This document shows, in pieces, positions 8,826 to 27,824 of a stretch of 64,000 nucleotides of DNA. The DNA is from Escherichia coli (GTDB lineage Bacteria; Pseudomonadota; Gammaproteobacteria; Enterobacterales; Enterobacteriaceae), in the NCBI RefSeq assembly GCF_003018235.1, contig NZ_CP027437.1. One strand, given 5' to 3'. The translations under genes and the position numbers were made by a program. The notes beneath the pieces are model-generated. The model ran no database searches. It had not been told where the DNA came from and saw only the letters and a list, made by a program, of their open reading frames with translations. Position 1 is the stretch's first letter, and every line of letters starts with the position of its first letter.

Positions 8826-9118
8826 TATAAATTTCTCATTAAATCTGGATAAATAAATTGACGGCGGCATCGGTAATTTGAGATTCGTTATCATTAAAAA
8901 CGAACACAGAAAAAATAAATATAAATTTGGTGAATGTTTTTGACATGATTAAATCCCTTTACTTTATTTATTTCTGACATAATACGTTACTCCCTTTTAT
9001 TATTAACGATCTGTTTCTCATTTTTCTTTAAACCTGCCTGTAACAGAATGTTAATAAGACATGATTGTTGTGGCAGGATCTGCAATAATTAACAATTATC
9101 CACTTCACAGAGAATGCT

Positions 9119-10128: not shown

Positions 10129-10400
10129 AGAGTTCCCCGCGCGAGCGGGGATAAACCGGCCGTCGCCGGATCAGCCTGGCTATGCCAGCAGAGTTCCCCG
10201 CGCCAGCGGGGATAAACCGGACGAACAAAATAAAAACCAACTGAATGATGCGAGTTCCCCGCGCCAGCGGGGATAAACCGCGAACCCTTGAACCGATAAG
10301 GGCGCTGTTTTGGAGTTCCCCGCGCCAGCGGGGATAAACCGGATAGGTGTTACACATATGACCTGGCACTGGCGAGTTTCCCGCGCCAGCGGGGATAACC
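10129..10400 (+). CRISPR. Type I-E-style CRISPR array, 5 repeats and 4 spacers
   Basis: 29-nt repeat gagttccccgcgccagcggggataaaccg at 10129 (variant cgcgag), 10190, 10251, 10312, plus degenerate terminal repeat at 10373-10400; four 32-nt spacers at 10158-10189, 10219-10250, 10280-10311, 10341-10372. Confidence 0.95.
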
Positions 10401-10447
10401 ATTCAGGTATGTTCAGGCCGGGCAGTTTCCCGCCCGGCCTTCCTCAC

Positions 10448-11925
10448 TTACGCATTCGACCAGCTCTGGATCGAATCCGCATTCCCCAATTCCCCATGCA
10501 TCACTTCATACGATTTTTTCAGGATTACATCAGTATGTTTGGTTAACTCCTTGAAAATGCTTTTATTCATCGCGTCGTAGCGTTTGGCACTGTTCTCAAC
10601 AGGCATAAAGATATCTTTCACGCGAACCATTTTGTCGACAGCCGTTGCGTAATCCGGGTATAGCCCCAGACCTACCGCCGTATTAATCGCTGCCCCCAGA
10701 CTTGCACAACCATTAATGGCGTTACGGCGTGCCGGAAGGTTGAACACGTCGGCAAAAATCTGCATAAACAGATCGCTGTTCGAACCGCCGCCAGTAATGA
10801 TCACATGCTTTGCAAAGTGATTCATTTCATTACACATATTGTCGTAATTGTTCTTCAGCGTCAGGCCACGCTTTCCAGTATCGAACGATATATCCATGCG
10901 TAATCCATGCTGGAATCAAAGCCAATCATAATCCCGCGTTTGTACGGTTCCCACGGATTGGTCAGCCAGTCCAGCACCGTCATCAGACCATTACAGCCTG
11001 GCGGCACACAAGACGCTTTTTTGTTGAGCAAATCTTCCGGTGAAAGATCCTGTGCTTTGGCATCCTGAATTAACGACTCGCCTAACATGTCGCGTAGCCA
11101 GCTCACCGTCCACATGCCTTTGCGAATACCGTAACCTTCATACAGCAAGGTTTGCGGAATAGAAGACATAATCGGCCAGTACGCTACCGGATCTTTCGGT
11201 AGTAATTTGCCGTTCATCATCAACGCGATGTAAGTGCCAAGAGAAATTACCGCAGTTTCATCATCCAGTAACCCGGCTCCCAGTGCTTCTACCGGTTTAT
11301 CACTGGTGGTACAAACAACCGGCAGCCCAGCCGGGAAATGTGTCGCCAGCGCGGCTTGAGGAGTGATATGCCCAAGAACAGTGCCCGGCATTTGCACATC
11401 AAACAGCATATGACGGGGGATATTAAACTTCTCCATGACTGCGGCATCTTCACTCCATGCCCAGGTCTTATAATCCACCGGCCACTGACCAAAATAGTTG
11501 GCGATATTGTCTTTAAACTCGCCGGTTAAGCGATGCGTCAGATAACCTGAAAAAGAGGTGACATATGCCACGTCAGGATTCGTATGTTCGTAAGGGCGTG
11601 TAACGCGTGCATCCTGCCAGCTAATCAACGGCGCAGCTGGCGTGCCATCGGCTTTCAATAACGCACGGCAGCAACGGATGGATCCCAGACCAATACCGAC
11701 AATATCTTCTTTATTCCCGGCAAACTGACTCATCAAATCGTGACCGGCAAAACATAATGATGCCCATAAATCGTCGTCAGGATGTTCTGCGGTATCGGCA
11801 TCTGGCGTGTGCATCGGCTGCAATAAGCCTTTGCCTTCGCAAACCACATTACCTTCCAGATCATACATCACCACTTTTGTGCTCTGACTTCCGCCATCAA
11901 TCCCTATGATGTATTTTTTCGACAT
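10448..11925 (-). pseudogene. ygcE: FGGY-family sugar kinase gene split by a frameshift (two ORFs overlapping at 10861-10897)
   Basis: N-terminal ORF 10861-11925 ends ...YRSILESVA*; the other frame continues ...LTLKNNYDNM... to 10448; restoring one C in the minus-strand run gtggcc-ctgacg rejoins them into a 492-codon frame. Confidence 0.7.
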
Positions 11926-11951
11926 GATTTTTCTCCTGTAATTTTCTGGAC

Positions 11952-13229
11952 TTACTTGCTGCTAGCCATAGCAGGGGCGCTATCAGCAGTACGAATTTTT
12001 TGGAACAGCAAAAAGGTAAAGACGATCACCATGGCAAGCGCCGCCATGCCCATCAGCCACATATTGCGGTAGGCTTCTGCAGCGGGCAGGGTGTCTTGCC
12101 AGTAGCCGATAATCGGGTAAACGAAGACATCCGGCAGGAATCCAATCACCGAACAAATACCTACCGTGGTGCCCATAATGTAAGACGGTGTTCTCGCTTC
12201 GCCAGGGCAGGCCCAGTACAGCCCGCGTGAGGCGTAACAGGTGAATCCCAGCAGTAAAATCAGGCCAATCCCCATCGCGACCGATTGCGGGTTAGAGTTC
12301 GTGACGAGCAGGGCAGTTAACGCCAGCAAGCCGAGTACGGAAAGGATTTGGATCACGCGGGTAGGGGATTTCACTTTGCTGTAAGTGGTGATAATGCCGC
12401 CAAGCGGACCGCACAGTGCGCGGAAGATTTTGTTGATCACAATCCCCATGTAGCTCGCCGCCACCAGCGACATACCGTACATTTCGGTCAGATAGTTGGT
12501 GGAGTAACTCAGAATGGCGTAGATGGTGAAGACACCAAAAATCACCATGCTGCAATACCAGGTGGTGCTGATGCGCAAAACGGCCAGGATGTCGCTAAGC
12601 TGGAATGACTGTTTTTCTTCGTTATTGGTATTGCGTAGGTTGTTGTTATCGCTAACAAAAAACCAACACAAAATGCCCAGCAGAATGTAAACCACACTAT
12701 AGATAATAATGACCGTTTTCAGGCTGGCGCTGTCATCCGGTGCAAAGCGAGAAAAGACCCACATGGTAAACACCGCCAGCGACATTACACCGACGCCGCG
12801 CAGCCCTTCCATCCAGCCCATAATTTTCCCTTGCTCGCTATGATCGCCCAGCAACGATGCGGCTTTAATCGACACCGACCACAGCATTAAAATCGTCGTT
12901 ATCGCAAAGGCGACCTGAATACAGAGCATTACCCACAGCGGTGGATATGTTGCCATTAACAGACCCAGTAATCCGGTAATGATCATCGCGGAAGTAATCA
13001 TTTTGCGGTGTGAAAATTTATCGGCAATAACGCCGCTGGGGGCATAAAGAATAATAGCCGCAATACCAAAGGTACTCATTATTAAACCTATCTCGGTATT
13101 GCTGAATCCCATAAATTTCGCCATGGGAATTTGATAAATATAACGTAAATAAGCCAGGTCGAAACTAACGCCGCCGCTAAAACTAATTATCGCGAGGGTT
13201 ATCCAACGGCGATATGAGTTGTGTTGCAT
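11952..13229 (-). CDS. yqcE: MFS-family transporter
   Basis: 425-aa ORF with multiple hydrophobic helices; synteny next to ygcE. Confidence 0.85.
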   Translation of the reverse strand: MQHNSYRRWITLAIISFSGGVSFDLAYLRYIYQIPMAKFMGFSNTEIGLIMSTFGIAAIILYAPSGVIADKFSHRKMITSAMIITGLLGLLMATYPPLWVMLCIQVAFAITTILMLWSVSIKAASLLGDHSEQGKIMGWMEGLRGVGVMSLAVFTMWVFSRFAPDDSASLKTVIIIYSVVYILLGILCWFFVSDNNNLRNTNNEEKQSFQLSDILAVLRISTTWYCSMVIFGVFTIYAILSYSTNYLTEMYGMSLVAASYMGIVINKIFRALCGPLGGIITTYSKVKSPTRVIQILSVLGLLALTALLVTNSNPQSVAMGIGLILLLGFTCYASRGLYWACPGEARTPSYIMGTTVGICSVIGFLPDVFVYPIIGYWQDTLPAAEAYRNMWLMGMAALAMVIVFTFLLFQKIRTADSAPAMASSK

Positions 13230-13407
13230 ATCGTATTCCCATTTGTAATAGACAAAAAAAAGAGAAAAGTAAGCCGCCCTTTCAGGTGGATTACTTTTCT
13301 CAGGTCTCTAGTAATTGCAATAAGAAATAACATGGAAAGTAGTGGTGTTGTGTGAGAGTAATCACGCTTCTGCTTTTTAAAATTATTTGACAATTCGAAT
13401 ATCACAC

Positions 13408-13423
13408 TGTGATTACGATCACA
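13408..13423. promoter_or_regulatory. Candidate CRP binding site in the yqcE/ygcW divergent region
   Basis: tgtgattacgatcaca = TGTGA-N6-TCACA, perfect match to both CRP consensus half-sites. Confidence 0.5.
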
Positions 13424-13440
13424 TTAGCGATTATGCCCTT

Positions 13441-13523
13441 ATGATAAAAATTATCTCCAGTTACCAGAGATAATGAGAAAGGTAACTTCCCTCTCGCGGG
13501 GGAAGTTACCTTTCTTTTTTTTT
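13441..13523 (+). promoter_or_regulatory. Attenuator-like leader upstream of ygcW: hairpin, alternative pairing, intrinsic terminator, possible 10-codon leader ORF
   Basis: Hairpin 1 attatctc/gagataat (13450-13474); terminator stem ggtaacttccc/gggaagttacc (13481-13510) followed by a 13-nt T-rich tract (tttc + 9 T, 13511-13523); agttacc in the hairpin-1 loop is complementary to the terminator 5' arm; ORF MIKIISSYQR at 13441-13473. Confidence 0.45.
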
Positions 13524-13547
13524 GCCTTACGGAAATTGGAGCTAACT

Positions 13548-14333
13548 ATGTCAATCGAATCTCTCAATGCGTTCTCAATGGATTTTTTCTCCCTGAAAGG
13601 TAAAACCGCAATTGTTACCGGCGGGAATAGCGGTTTAGGCCAGGCATTTGCCATGGCGCTGGCCAAAGCAGGCGCAAATATCTTTATTCCAAGCTTCGTT
13701 AAAGATAACGGTGAAACAAAGGAAATGATTGAAAAACAGGGTGTTGAGGTGGACTTCATGCAGGTGGATATCACCGCAGAAGGCGCGCCGCAGAAGATAA
13801 TCGCCGCCTGTTGCGAACGTTTCGGTACCGTCGATATTCTGATTAACAATGCCGGTATTTGTAAGCTGAATAAGGTGCTGGACTTCGGTCGTGCCGACTG
13901 GGACCCGATGATTGATGTGAACCTGACCGCCGCATTCGAGTTAAGCTATGAAGCTGCAAAAATTATGATCCCGCAGAAAAGCGGTAAAATCATTAATATC
14001 TGTTCATTATTCTCTTACTTAGGTGGACAATGGTCACCTGCATATTCTGCCACTAAACATGCTCTTGCCGGGTTCACCAAAGCTTATTGTGATGAACTAG
14101 GTCAATATAATATTCAGGTAAATGGTATTGCTCCGGGATATTACGCTACCGATATCACTCTGGCGACCCGTAGTAATCCAGAAACTAACCAGCGCGTTCT
14201 TGATCATATTCCGGCAAACCGTTGGGGCGATACTCAGGATTTAATGGGCGCAGCCGTATTCCTCGCAAGTCCGGCATCGAATTATGTCAACGGACATTTA
14301 TTAGTGGTTGATGGCGGTTATTTAGTGCGCTAA
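13548..14333 (+). CDS. ygcW: Short-chain dehydrogenase/reductase (SDR) family oxidoreductase
   Basis: Start set at MSIESLNAF... (261 aa) with RBS ggag; TGGNSGLG Rossmann motif. Confidence 0.85.
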   Translation: MSIESLNAFSMDFFSLKGKTAIVTGGNSGLGQAFAMALAKAGANIFIPSFVKDNGETKEMIEKQGVEVDFMQVDITAEGAPQKIIAACCERFGTVDILINNAGICKLNKVLDFGRADWDPMIDVNLTAAFELSYEAAKIMIPQKSGKIINICSLFSYLGGQWSPAYSATKHALAGFTKAYCDELGQYNIQVNGIAPGYYATDITLATRSNPETNQRVLDHIPANRWGDTQDLMGAAVFLASPASNYVNGHLLVVDGGYLVR

Positions 14334-14402
14334 TCCATAACGGTGGTTTCTGTTTTCTCTTATTAATGATTATTCCATTTTTATTATCAGGAAGGAATTA
14401 CT

Positions 14403-15857
14403 ATGTCTTTATCTCGCGCAGCGATTGTCGACCAGCTAAAGGAAATTGTTGGTGCAGATCGCGTAATTACCGATGAAACAGTATTAAAGAAGAACAGTAT
14501 TGACCGTTTTCGCAAATTTCCGGATATTCATGGCATTTATACTTTGCCGATTCCGGCAGCGGTCGTAAAACTCGGTTCCACAGAACAAGTATCCCGTGTG
14601 CTGAATTTTATGAATGCGCACAAAATTAACGGTGTGCCGCGTACCGGTGCTTCCGCTACCGAAGGTGGGCTGGAAACCGTTGTGGAAAACTCGGTGGTGC
14701 TCGACGGCTCTGCCATGAATCAAATCATTAATATTGATATTGAGAATATGCAGGCCACGGCGCAATGCGGAGTTCCGCTGGAAGTGCTGGAAAACGCGTT
14801 GCGTGAAAAAGGTTACACCACGGGGCATTCTCCGCAGTCAAAGCCGCTGGCGCAGATGGGCGGCCTGGTAGCAACCCGCAGTATCGGGCAGTTCTCCACA
14901 CTCTACGGCGCAATCGAAGATATGGTCGTTGGTCTGGAAGCAGTATTGGCTGATGGCACCGTAACACGCATTAAAAACGTACCACGCCGCGCGGCAGGCC
15001 CGGACATTCGTCACATCATCATCGGCAACGAAGGTGCATTGTGCTATATCACTGAAGTAACTGTGAAAATCTTTAAGTTCACCCCGGAAAACAACCTCTT
15101 CTACGGCTATATCCTGGAAGACATGAAAACCGGCTTCAACATCCTGCGTGAAATCATGGTGGAAGGGTATCGTCCGTCGATCGCTCGTTTGTATGACGCT
15201 GAAGATGGCACCCAACACTTCACCCATTTTGCTGACGGAAAATGCGTGCTGATCTTTATGGCTGAAGGTAACCCTCGCATTGCGAAGGCGACGGGCGAAG
15301 GGATTGCTGAAATCGTGGCACGTTACCCGCAATGCCAGCGAGTGGACAGCAAGCTGATCGAAACCTGGTTTAACAACCTGAACTGGGGACCGGATAAAGT
15401 GGCCGCTGAACGTGTGCAGATCCTCAAAACCGGCAACATGGGCTTTACCACCGAAGTGTCCGGCTGCTGGAGCTGCATCCACGAAATCTACGAAAGCGTT
15501 ATTAACCGTATTCGTACCGAGTTCCCGCACGCCGACGACATCACCATGCTGGGCGGTCACTCCTCTCACAGCTACCAGAACGGCACCAACATGTACTTCG
15601 TTTACGACTACAACGTTGTTGACTGTAAGCCGGAAGAGGAAATCGACAAGTACCACAATCCGCTCAACAAAATCATCTGCGAAGAAACCATTCGCCTCGG
15701 CGGTTCGATGGTGCACCACCACGGTATTGGTAAACATCGCGTTCACTGGAGCAAACTGGAACACGGCAGCGCGTGGACGTTGCTGGAAGGTCTGAAAAAA
15801 CAGTTCGATCCTAACGGCATTATGAATACGGGTACTATCTATCCGATTGAAAAATAA
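14403..15857 (+). CDS. ygcU: FAD-linked oxidase (alkyl-DHAP synthase-like)
   Basis: 484-aa ORF; FAD-binding PCMH-type domain. Confidence 0.85.
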   Translation: MSLSRAAIVDQLKEIVGADRVITDETVLKKNSIDRFRKFPDIHGIYTLPIPAAVVKLGSTEQVSRVLNFMNAHKINGVPRTGASATEGGLETVVENSVVLDGSAMNQIINIDIENMQATAQCGVPLEVLENALREKGYTTGHSPQSKPLAQMGGLVATRSIGQFSTLYGAIEDMVVGLEAVLADGTVTRIKNVPRRAAGPDIRHIIIGNEGALCYITEVTVKIFKFTPENNLFYGYILEDMKTGFNILREIMVEGYRPSIARLYDAEDGTQHFTHFADGKCVLIFMAEGNPRIAKATGEGIAEIVARYPQCQRVDSKLIETWFNNLNWGPDKVAAERVQILKTGNMGFTTEVSGCWSCIHEIYESVINRIRTEFPHADDITMLGGHSSHSYQNGTNMYFVYDYNVVDCKPEEEIDKYHNPLNKIICEETIRLGGSMVHHHGIGKHRVHWSKLEHGSAWTLLEGLKKQFDPNGIMNTGTIYPIEK

Positions 15858-15950: not shown

Positions 15951-17288
15951 ATGAACACTTCACCGGTGCGAATGGATGATTTACCGCTTAACCGTTTTCA
16001 CTGTCGAATTGCTGCGCTCACTTTCGGCGCGCACCTGACCGACGGTTATGTTCTCGGCGTCATTGGTTACGCCATTATTCAGCTTACGCCCGCCATGCAA
16101 CTGACGCCGTTAATGGCGGGAATGATTGGCGGCTCGGCGCTCCTTGGTTTGTTTCTTGGCAGCCTGGTTCTTGGATGGATCTCCGACCATATTGGTCGGC
16201 AAAAAATCTTCACCTTCAGCTTTTTGCTGATTACGCTCGCTTCGTTTTTACAATATTTTGCCACCACGCCAGAGCATCTTATAGGACTACGCATTTTGAT
16301 TGGCATTGGTCTGGGAGGCGATTACTCAGTAGGTCACACTTTGCTGGCTGAATTTTCTCCGCGCCGCCATCGCGGTGTTTTGCTGGGCGCGTTCAGCGTG
16401 GTGTGGACCGTAGGCTATGTGTTAGCAAGTATTGCCGGACATCACTTTATTAGCGAAAGCCCGGAGGCCTGGCGCTGGCTGCTGGCATCGGCAGCTCTGC
16501 CCGCGTTGTTGATTACGTTATTACGCTGGGGAACGCCAGAATCGCCACGCTGGCTACTGCGCCAGGGGCGTTTTGCAGAAGCTCACGCTATCGTGCATCG
16601 CTATTTTGGTCCCCATGTTTTACTGGGCGATGAAGTGGCAACGGCGACCCATAAACACATCAAAACCTTGTTCTCTTCGCGCTACTGGCGGCGCACAGCG
16701 TTTAACAGCGTCTTCTTTGTCTGCCTCGTAATCCCATGGTTTGTGATTTATACCTGGCTGCCAACTATCGCCCAGACTATTGGACTGGAAGATGCGCTGA
16801 CTGCCAGCCTGATGCTTAATGCGTTGTTAATTGTGGGCGCGCTGTTGGGATTAGTTCTGACGCACCTGCTGGCACATCGCAAATTTTTGCTGGGAAGTTT
16901 TTTGCTGCTGGCGGCAACGCTGGTCGTGATGGCCTGTTTGCCTTCCGGCAGTTCATTAACGCTGCTGCTTTTTGTTCTCTTCAGCACCACCATTTCGGCA
17001 GTCAGTAATCTGGTGGGCATTTTGCCTGCGGAAAGTTTTCCTACTGACATTCGCTCGCTGGGCGTCGGTTTTGCCACCGCCATGAGTCGACTTGGCGCGG
17101 CGGTAAGTACTGGCCTGCTGCCGTGGGTGCTGGCGCAGTGGGGAATGCAAGTCACCTTATTGCTCCTGGCGGCAGTGTTGTTGGTTGGTTTTGTTGTGAC
17201 CTGGCTATGGGCACCAGAAACCAAAGCACTCCCGCTGGTGGCGGCGGGAAATGTAGGAGGTGCGAATGAACATTCTGTTAGCGTTTAA
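15951..17288 (+). CDS. ygcS: MFS-family transporter
   Basis: ORF 15861-17288; start set at MNTSPVRMDDLPLNRF (445 aa); 12-TM-like hydrophobic profile. Confidence 0.8.
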   Translation: MNTSPVRMDDLPLNRFHCRIAALTFGAHLTDGYVLGVIGYAIIQLTPAMQLTPLMAGMIGGSALLGLFLGSLVLGWISDHIGRQKIFTFSFLLITLASFLQYFATTPEHLIGLRILIGIGLGGDYSVGHTLLAEFSPRRHRGVLLGAFSVVWTVGYVLASIAGHHFISESPEAWRWLLASAALPALLITLLRWGTPESPRWLLRQGRFAEAHAIVHRYFGPHVLLGDEVATATHKHIKTLFSSRYWRRTAFNSVFFVCLVIPWFVIYTWLPTIAQTIGLEDALTASLMLNALLIVGALLGLVLTHLLAHRKFLLGSFLLLAATLVVMACLPSGSSLTLLLFVLFSTTISAVSNLVGILPAESFPTDIRSLGVGFATAMSRLGAAVSTGLLPWVLAQWGMQVTLLLLAAVLLVGFVVTWLWAPETKALPLVAAGNVGGANEHSVSV

Positions 17289-18045
17289 AGCCGAACCGGA
17301 TGCCGGAATGCTGGCGGAAAAAGAGTGGCAGGCGGCGGCTCAGGGTAATAGCGGACCGGATGTTTCGCTACTGCGAAGTTTACTCGGTGCTGATGAACAG
17401 GCTGCCGCCGCGCTGCTGTTGGCGCAGAGAAAAAACGGTACGTCGATGTCTTTAACCGCGTTGAGCATGGGGGATGAACGGGCGTTGCACTGGCTGCGCT
17501 ATCTCATGGCTCTTGGGTTTGAGGAAGCTGTATTGCTGGAGACGGCGGCAGATCTGCGCTTTGCGCCGGAATTTGTCGCTCGCCATATTGCCGAATGGCA
17601 GCGTCAGAATCCGCTGGATCTGATAATTACCGGCTGCCAAAGCAGCGAAGGGCAGAATGGGCAAACGCCATTTTTGCTGGCGGAAATGCTGGGCTGGCCC
17701 TGCTTCACCCAGGTGGAGCGTTTCACTCTCGACGCGCCGTTTATCACCCTCGAACAGCGTACTGAACATGGGCTGCGCTGTTGCCGGGTTCGCTTGCCTG
17801 CGGTGATTGCCGTGCGTCAGTGCGGTGAAGTGGCCTTGCCAGTACCGGGAATGCGTCAGCGAATGGCGGCGGGGAAAGCAGAAATTATCCGTAAAACTGT
17901 TGCTGCCGAATCGCCAGCGATGCTGTGTCTGCAACTGGCAAGAGCAGAGCAACGACGCGGAGCGACGCTGATTGATGGGCAAACGGTAGCAGAAAAAGCG
18001 CAAAAGCTATGGCAGGACTATTTACGCCAAAGGATGCAGCCATGA
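17266..18045 (+). CDS. ygcR: Electron-transfer flavoprotein beta-subunit-like protein (FixA-like)
   Basis: ORF 17260-18045; start set at MNILLAFK; ETF-beta family; overlaps ygcQ start. Confidence 0.8.
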   Translation: MNILLAFKAEPDAGMLAEKEWQAAAQGNSGPDVSLLRSLLGADEQAAAALLLAQRKNGTSMSLTALSMGDERALHWLRYLMALGFEEAVLLETAADLRFAPEFVARHIAEWQRQNPLDLIITGCQSSEGQNGQTPFLLAEMLGWPCFTQVERFTLDAPFITLEQRTEHGLRCCRVRLPAVIAVRQCGEVALPVPGMRQRMAAGKAEIIRKTVAAESPAMLCLQLARAEQRRGATLIDGQTVAEKAQKLWQDYLRQRMQP

Positions 18046-26409: not shown

Positions 26410-26514
26410 ATGGACAAAAGCCCCAGGCGATATTTCTATCAACCTGAGGCCAGCGTTCGAACCCAAACAATTCGAATGTTAGTCTCTTCTTTGCAGGGAG
26501 GCAAGACATGCTGA
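26410..26514 (+). CDS. mok-like leader ORF overlapping the hok-like start (34 codons)
   Basis: ATG at 26410, stop TGA at 26512-26514 overlapping the downstream ATG (acATGcTGA); translation [34 protein letters not shown]. Confidence 0.4.
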
Positions 26515-26660
26515 CAAAATATGCCCTTGTGGCAATCATAGTGCTGTGTTTTACAGTACTGGGATTCACGCTGATGGTAGGCGACTCGTTGTGTGAGTTG
26601 AGTATCAGAGAACGTGGTATGGAGTTTAAGGCAGTTCTCGCTTACGAATCGAAGAAGTAG
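26508..26660 (+). CDS. Hok/Gef-family membrane toxin (type I toxin-antitoxin), 50 aa
   Basis: [50 protein letters not shown]: single TM helix plus conserved LCEL..R.G..E..A..AYES.K tail; below the ORF-track size cutoff. Confidence 0.8.
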
Positions 26661-26786
26661 CCACCACGCGGGGGTAAAACCCCGCGTACTGAATTGTTAA
26701 AGTTTGGCCTCCTGCACCCCTTTTTTATACTCTGTTTCTGGTGGCATTGATTTCCTGCAGGCAAGGGAGTAATCATTTCAAACCCA

Positions 26787-27824
26787 TCAAGACGCCTTCG
26801 CCAGCTCCTTCACCAGCGGTAGCATTATCCGCATAACATCACGGCAGCGACGTTCTATTCTTCCTGGAAGTGCCTTATCAATATGTTGTTGATTATCCAG
26901 TCTTACGTCATGCCAGCTATTTCCCGCAGGGAATGCAGCTGTTTTTGCGCGTTGCTGATAACCATCCTTATTCCCAAGATTCCAATTTGTTGCTTCTACC
27001 GAAAGTACGGCAATACCGGCTTTGTCGAAAACTTCGGCGTCATTACAACAGCCAGTACCCTTCGGATAATTTTTATTCAAACCCGGATTGGTCGTTGCGG
27101 CAATTCCATGACTACGCGCAATTGCCAGCGCCCTGTCGCGCGTTAATTTCCTTACTGCTTCAGGGGTTTTTACGCCGCTGTTGAAATACAATTTATCGCC
27201 AACAATTAAGTTATCGAGATTAATCACCAGCAGCGTATTTTTCTTTTCGGTGTCACTCATCCGCTTGAGTAAATTCTCAGCACCTAATTTCCCTTCCTCT
27301 TCACCACTGGTCGCCACAAATCGAATACCATACTCGGTAGGCGTATTTTTCAGGCGTTCTGCCAATTCCAGCATGACACCTAAACCTGCAGCGTTATCAT
27401 CCATTCCTTGTAACGTCAGTCCGCCGAGATTGGCATCGGCGTCAGCATCGCTCAGCGGGGCGTAAGTATCCAGATGCGCCATAATGATGATCTGCTGCGG
27501 CGCTTTGCCTTCATGAGCGGCAATCACCGTACTTCCCGTCACGTTATGCCAGCTCTTGCGATTATCGCGGGCGGTATAAATATACCGACTATTAAATGTC
27601 CGAATATCACTGCGATAACCCATTTGCTGAAACTGTTGGCGAATATAATCGGCAGATAACATTTCTGCTGGAGTTCCGGTCATGCGTCCCGGAAAGAAAG
27701 TAGCAATATGTCGTGCCTGAGTATTAGCAAAATCGCCAGGTTTAGATGACGAGGCGTGTACGGGGAGAATAAAGCATACGCCGAGCGCCAGGGCAGCGGT
27801 ACGGTGGCGCAATGCGGAAAACAT
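26787..27824 (-). CDS. iap: Alkaline phosphatase isozyme conversion aminopeptidase
   Basis: 345-aa ORF with signal peptide; M28 peptidase family; convergent with cysH. Confidence 0.9.
   Translation of the reverse strand: MFSALRHRTAALALGVCFILPVHASSSKPGDFANTQARHIATFFPGRMTGTPAEMLSADYIRQQFQQMGYRSDIRTFNSRYIYTARDNRKSWHNVTGSTVIAAHEGKAPQQIIIMAHLDTYAPLSDADADANLGGLTLQGMDDNAAGLGVMLELAERLKNTPTEYGIRFVATSGEEEGKLGAENLLKRMSDTEKKNTLLVINLDNLIVGDKLYFNSGVKTPEAVRKLTRDRALAIARSHGIAATTNPGLNKNYPKGTGCCNDAEVFDKAGIAVLSVEATNWNLGNKDGYQQRAKTAAFPAGNSWHDVRLDNQQHIDKALPGRIERRCRDVMRIMLPLVKELAKAS

Follow-up and report, generated by a model that had tools for sequence, protein, structure and literature searches.

YgcE of Escherichia coli (b2776 in K-12; WP_000039721.1) has been termed an uncharacterized sugar kinase (PMC8605246), and its gene is listed together with yqcE as one Crp-activated unit (PMC8085971). 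Intact YgcE carries both domains of the FGGY family (PF00370 and PF02782). In Pfam, FGGY_N extends over residues 5-216 (PF00370 at 5-110 and 121-216) and FGGY_C over residues 226-418.

The nearest solved FGGY kinases are the autoinducer-2 kinase LsrK (PDB 5ya0) and the glycerol kinase GlpK, whose homology to YgcE is distant only. LsrK is the best solved relative (E = 6.5e-29), and by sequence YgcE has the same two-domain ASKHA/FGGY fold. The C-terminal GGGS loop of these enzymes is conserved in YgcE: the stretch ITGGGSNSDLF aligns with the GGGS of LsrK 5ya0, and the YgcE segment in that alignment is VIITGGGSNSDLFMQIFADV. We take this C-terminal glycine-rich loop (GGGS/GGA) to be the nucleotide-holding 'adenosine' motif of ASKHA kinases. 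YgcE was also compared with the NCBIfam equivalogs for xylulokinase, LsrK, GlpK, gluconokinase, ribulokinase, fuculokinase and rhamnulokinase. All 12 matches fell far below their cut-offs; the best was to XylB TIGR01312 (142 bits vs a cut-off of 380), and NF008187 reached 139 bits vs 528. The substrate of YgcE is therefore not transferable from any of these enzymes.

We examined the ygcE locus in a stretch of 64,000 nucleotides from an E. coli genome (NCBI RefSeq assembly GCF_003018235.1, contig NZ_CP027437.1), referred to below as the window. In this stretch the kinase gene is interrupted, and we considered whether the interruption is genuine, whether the gene could still function and how the allele relates to other ygcE alleles of the species.

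Results

Identity and neighbourhood of the ygcE locus

A megablast search of 5,426 complete E. coli genomes with positions 10400-11980 of the window gave matches in 5,373. The top matches were 99.4% identical over 1,581 nt, and each of them measured 1,582 bases vs the 1,581 of the query. In these genomes the gene is annotated as ygcE and sits downstream of yqcE, which encodes an MFS transporter; FGGY-family carbohydrate kinase is the ygcE annotation in all matching E. coli records. Compared with E. coli ygcE, the window gene showed 99.2-99.4% nucleotide identity and the same gene order (ygcW, yqcE, ygcE, CRISPR array, queE). Identity and synteny, with yqcE upstream and the CRISPR2 array and queE downstream, both place the gene in the ygcE orthologue group. 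When repaired, the window product is also 492 aa long and contains FGGY_N and FGGY_C.

The yqcE gene of the window (11952..13229, minus strand) is intact, with 1278 nt, no gaps and 99.3% identity to the reference. With only 26 nt between them, it and ygcE form an operon, in which yqcE is the upstream partner and ygcE the last gene. The native translation-initiation region of ygcE (11926..11950, minus strand) contains a strong AGGAG (near 11937..11933) that precedes the ATG by 7 nt. On its 3' side, ygcE is followed by the CRISPR array and then by the convergent queE, and no polar effect of its disruption on other genes is therefore expected. Directly after the ygcE stop codon, at 10416-10440 on the minus strand, lies a GC-rich inverted repeat (AGGCCGGGC ... 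GCCCGGCCT) with no T-run following it. It was not called by the terminator scan, and may form a hairpin, terminator-like or REP-like, where the operon ends.

The array between queE and ygcE, at 10129-10406, is an orphan CRISPR array of five type I-E-like repeats with 61-nt spacing (GAGTTCCCCGCGCCAGCGGGGATAAACCG, plus strand), of which the copy closest to ygcE is degenerate. It is retained though the window holds no cas genes: the type I-E cas operon (cas3, casA-E, cas1 and cas2) and the CRISPR1 array had no match in the window. In the reference strain TUM14771 the cas operon and CRISPR1 lie between cysH/hok and iap; at this place in the window (26660-26787) only about 130 bp separate a hok-like gene (26508-26660) from iap (26787-27824).

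A one-base deletion in codon 354

The sequence-only reading had described ygcE as split into a 354-codon ORF, ending in ILESVA and a stop, and a C-terminal ORF in another frame, and both the ORF list and the minus-strand sequence bear this out. The 5' part (10861..11925, minus strand; ORF A) comprises codons 1-354, ending ...YRSILESVA, followed by a premature TGA at 10863..10861. It codes for FGGY_N together with the initial ~129 residues of FGGY_C. The 3' remnant (10448..10864, minus strand) is shifted into the -1 frame with respect to the 5' part. It comprises original codons 355-492 (10864..10451) and the native TAA stop (10450..10448). Its 138 codons contain no internal stops and include the GGGS motif as well as the final part of FGGY_C. 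A further ORF of 149 aa, ORF B (10448..10897, minus strand), starts within the 5' part, at an ATG that is out of frame with it, and continues into the native C-terminal frame. Its translation reads MDISFDTGKRGLTLKNNYDNM...; the N-terminus is MDISFDTGKRG, after which it runs LTLKNNYDNMCNEMNHF... through to ...SIQSWSNA.

Three intact E. coli ygcE genes of 1479 nt (492 codons) were aligned with the window. The alignment contained exactly one gap column, between 10865 and 10864. The minus-strand junction in the window is GTGGCCTGACGCTGAAG, and the intact junction GTGGCGCTGACG stands against GTGGC-CTGACG in the window. Read in codons, intact GTG GCG CTG ACG has become GTG GC- CTG ACG. The deletion site (10864..10865, minus strand) thus has one G gone, with GGC-CTG in place of the intact GGC-G-CTG; viewed on the plus strand, a C is absent between G10864 and G10865.

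These results agree with the earlier proposal of a 1-bp deletion in a gene that, once restored, encodes a 492-codon protein. The missing base had been given as a C from a run, and here the proposal needed correction: it is the G of GCG, the codon for Ala354, that was lost. Insertion of a C would yield the same protein, yet would differ from the ancestral sequence. That ancestral context is GGCGCTG, with a C on either side of the deleted G, and so is no homopolymer; the window owes its CC pair to the deletion itself. A choice had been left between a pseudogene and a homopolymer sequencing error; the alignment context removes the basis for the homopolymer option, and the pseudogene is favoured.

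Predicted consequence for the protein

Once a G is lost from codon 354 (GCG CTG to GC- CTG), a ribosome that initiates at the normal start would read GCC and then TGA. The released protein of 354 residues would lack the last 138 residues, comprising about one third of FGGY_C and the GGGS nucleotide-binding loop. Pfam matched the 354-aa product to FGGY_N only and the 149-aa ORF B to FGGY_C only.

The 354-aa product is recorded with PF00370, and so has the N-terminal feature of the FGGY family. It does not have a complete FGGY_C on one polypeptide, as it ends after residue 354, inside 226-418. The GGGS loop lies downstream of the premature stop and is absent from the product, which should therefore not bind ATP properly. 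From its sequence, the 354-aa product almost certainly would have no kinase activity. The locus is best described as a member of the FGGY family by descent, in the form of a frameshifted pseudogene, and not as a functional member.

Evidence for a genuine deletion

The most probable reading, at roughly 0.88, is in our view that ygcE carries a real 1-bp deletion private to this strain and has thereby lost its function. The exact 354-aa and 149-aa products are recorded from one NCBI chromosome (5,012,557 bp) and from a read-derived Logan assembly of the SRA run SRR8930575; for the 354-aa product these are the only records. In the Logan assembly both lie on a contig of 8,668 bp that is present in 2 samples. 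It matches window positions 10314-14925 at 100.000% (4,612/4,612 bases), with the deletion included (GTGGCCTGACG), and terminates within a CRISPR repeat, where a short-k-mer graph built straight from reads would be expected to break off. The deletion thus survives a pipeline separate from that of the deposited genome.

The principal competing explanation is that ygcE is intact in the organism and that the missing base was introduced by base calling, assembly or polishing. Single-base indels are the commonest assembly error, and the allele was found in no other public genome searched, which is how a one-off error would look. The source assembly was itself outside the RefSeq complete set searched, in which identity peaked at 99.4% for the gene and at 98.1% across 25 kb. 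Against an artefact stand the GCGC context of the deletion, which offers no homopolymer, and its repetition in the separate de Bruijn-graph assembly, where the 4,612-base match is free of errors.

The quality of the surrounding sequence also bears on this explanation. We compared the window with E. coli TUM14771 over 62 alignable reference CDSs, from rlmD to hycC. A window-specific frameshift or premature stop was present in one of the 62, ygcE. The other 61 (~55 kb of coding sequence) had none, so this is not an indel-prone assembly. Taken with the alignment and the Logan match, we regard an artefact as unlikely. The NCBI assembly and the Logan assembly may derive from the same run; they are independent as assemblies, though perhaps not as libraries, and the deletion may be a library-level artefact or a mutation acquired in culture.

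The comparison with TUM14771 revealed two further cases of gene decay. The ygcR gene (17266-18045, plus strand), coding for the beta subunit of an electron-transfer flavoprotein, has an unbroken frame of 260 codons in the window and is frameshifted in TUM14771; it is another case of sporadic decay in the ygc cluster. Between queE and ygcG, 142 nt on the minus strand (8839-8980) hold a hypothetical-protein remnant with internal stops in the window. The same remnant is annotated as a pseudogene in E. coli GMF065 and in TUM14771, and is therefore old and shared. No interruption by an IS element was found among the 62 compared window genes; together with the 5.0-Mb size of the chromosome this speaks against Shigella, while the 98-99% identity and the synteny point to E. 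coli.

Distribution and divergence of the allele

An 81-nt segment spanning the mutant junction had an exact match in 0 of 5,364 complete E. coli genomes; the best match was 98.8%, the difference being the one gap. Exact-pattern scans found the 39-nt mutant junction in none of 100,044 GTDB species-representative genomes, and found the mutant junction in no JGI metagenome contig. The allele appears private to one isolate. At least 5,072 complete genomes (more than 94%) keep a one-piece ygcE locus. The possibility raised earlier that the two-ORF arrangement is the native state in orthologues does not hold against this distribution.

The two parts of the gene differed in their divergence from the nearest intact allele. 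The 5' part had 1 difference, synonymous, in 1,061 nt. Across the 417 nt of the 3' remnant, the closest of 5,372 genomes differed at 3 positions, one of them synonymous (S409, at 10700) and two nonsynonymous (N446S at 10590 and G456S at 10561). The two amino-acid changes are private to the window: none of the complete genomes had N446S or G456S in an otherwise matching 81-nt segment. This hints that the 3' part has evolved for some time without constraint, but the 3' vs 5' excess is not significant (Fisher p = 0.07), and recombination or descent from a divergent lineage could be enough to explain it.

Recoding, read-through and split expression

We also considered whether the allele could remain functional, either through -1 ribosomal frameshifting or transcriptional slippage that restores full-length YgcE, or through reassembly of the two ORFs into a split kinase. 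The 3' remnant is still open, with no further stops in its 138 codons, and a -1 shift following GCC would give back precisely ...SVALTLK.... The junction, G-TGG-CCT-GA, offers neither a slippery heptamer (X XXY YYZ) nor a run of one nucleotide, so a tRNA-Ala on GCC cannot re-pair on GGC. Read-through of the stop would be useless, since frame 0 continues TGA CGC TGA and thus has two stops one codon apart.

A split kinase would find some support in the Pfam assignment of ORF A to FGGY_N and of ORF B to FGGY_C. The break, however, falls inside FGGY_C (226-418) and not at the domain boundary, and no orthologue with the split arrangement was found among the 5,364 complete E. coli genomes. The 25 nt before the ORF B ATG (GCTTTGATTCCAGCATGGATTACGC) contain no GGAG, AGGA or GAGG. 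With no ribosome-binding site, the 3' remnant is probably not translated. A promoter and terminator scan of the yqcE-ygcE gap and the inside of ygcE gave nothing above shuffled expectation that would support separate expression of the 3' remnant.

On these grounds we rejected a programmed frameshift, read-through of the stop and expression as a split gene, and consider a functional allele very unlikely. It is similarly improbable that low-level -1 recoding at GCC-UGA, or non-covalent reassembly of the N- and C-terminal fragments, keeps the kinase active. If it did, ygcE would be a natural tolerated split within the FGGY_C domain.

Recurrent disruption of ygcE in E. coli

Disrupted forms of ygcE also occur elsewhere in the species. 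In E. coli GCA_002546565.1 (NNYC01000001.1, L008:2485-2590), 11 nt have been lost independently between GCATGGAT direct repeats; this lesion lies about 30 nt upstream of the one in the window. As in the window, a frameshift in the same ~40-nt stretch splits the gene into an FGGY_N ORF and an FGGY_C ORF, in this case of 361 aa and 140 aa. The two alleles differ in the type of lesion, that of GCA_002546565.1 being a slippage-type deletion between direct repeats. They differ also in distribution: the 361-aa product (P0013) was found in GCA_002546565.1 and on six further contigs (7 in total) and is common to several isolates, whereas the window allele is private.

Partial YgcE products P0030, P0021 and P0017 came from megabase-scale E. 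coli contigs, two of which are chromosomes of >4.5 Mb, and indicate further ygcE disruptions. In about 300 of 5,373 complete genomes, no single uninterrupted match reached 80% of the locus. Occasional decay of ygcE is thus normal in E. coli populations.

Such recurrence would be expected if loss of ygcE were adaptive, its inactivation being selected in some niches. The 11-nt deletion with its 7 contigs, the truncated P0030, P0021 and P0017, and the complete genomes with no one-piece match are all compatible with this view. More than 94% of complete genomes nevertheless keep the locus in one piece, the window allele is confined to one isolate, and neutral decay also predicts recurrent loss of a catabolic gene that is conditionally useless. 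We therefore hold adaptive loss to be highly improbable; together with a functional split or recoded gene it has only a few percent of our confidence. We infer that the loss of ygcE is selectively neutral.

Two aminoimidazole riboside kinases (P0003 and P0011), listed in the same 90% cluster as the YgcE fragment, were followed as a lead and discarded. They are only 24-26% identical, ribokinase-like and unrelated to YgcE; their presence in the cluster is apparently a quirk of its listing and no functional clue.

Discussion

The ygcE gene of the window is an ordinary strain-private frameshift pseudogene. The correct annotation is one frameshifted ygcE pseudogene, and not two separate kinase genes, and beyond this its significance is small. 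The strain is predicted to lose whatever sugar or polyol phosphorylation YgcE performs. Recurrent independent disruptions suggest that ygcE is dispensable in many niches, and this apparent dispensability may be mildly useful for assigning the function of YgcE.
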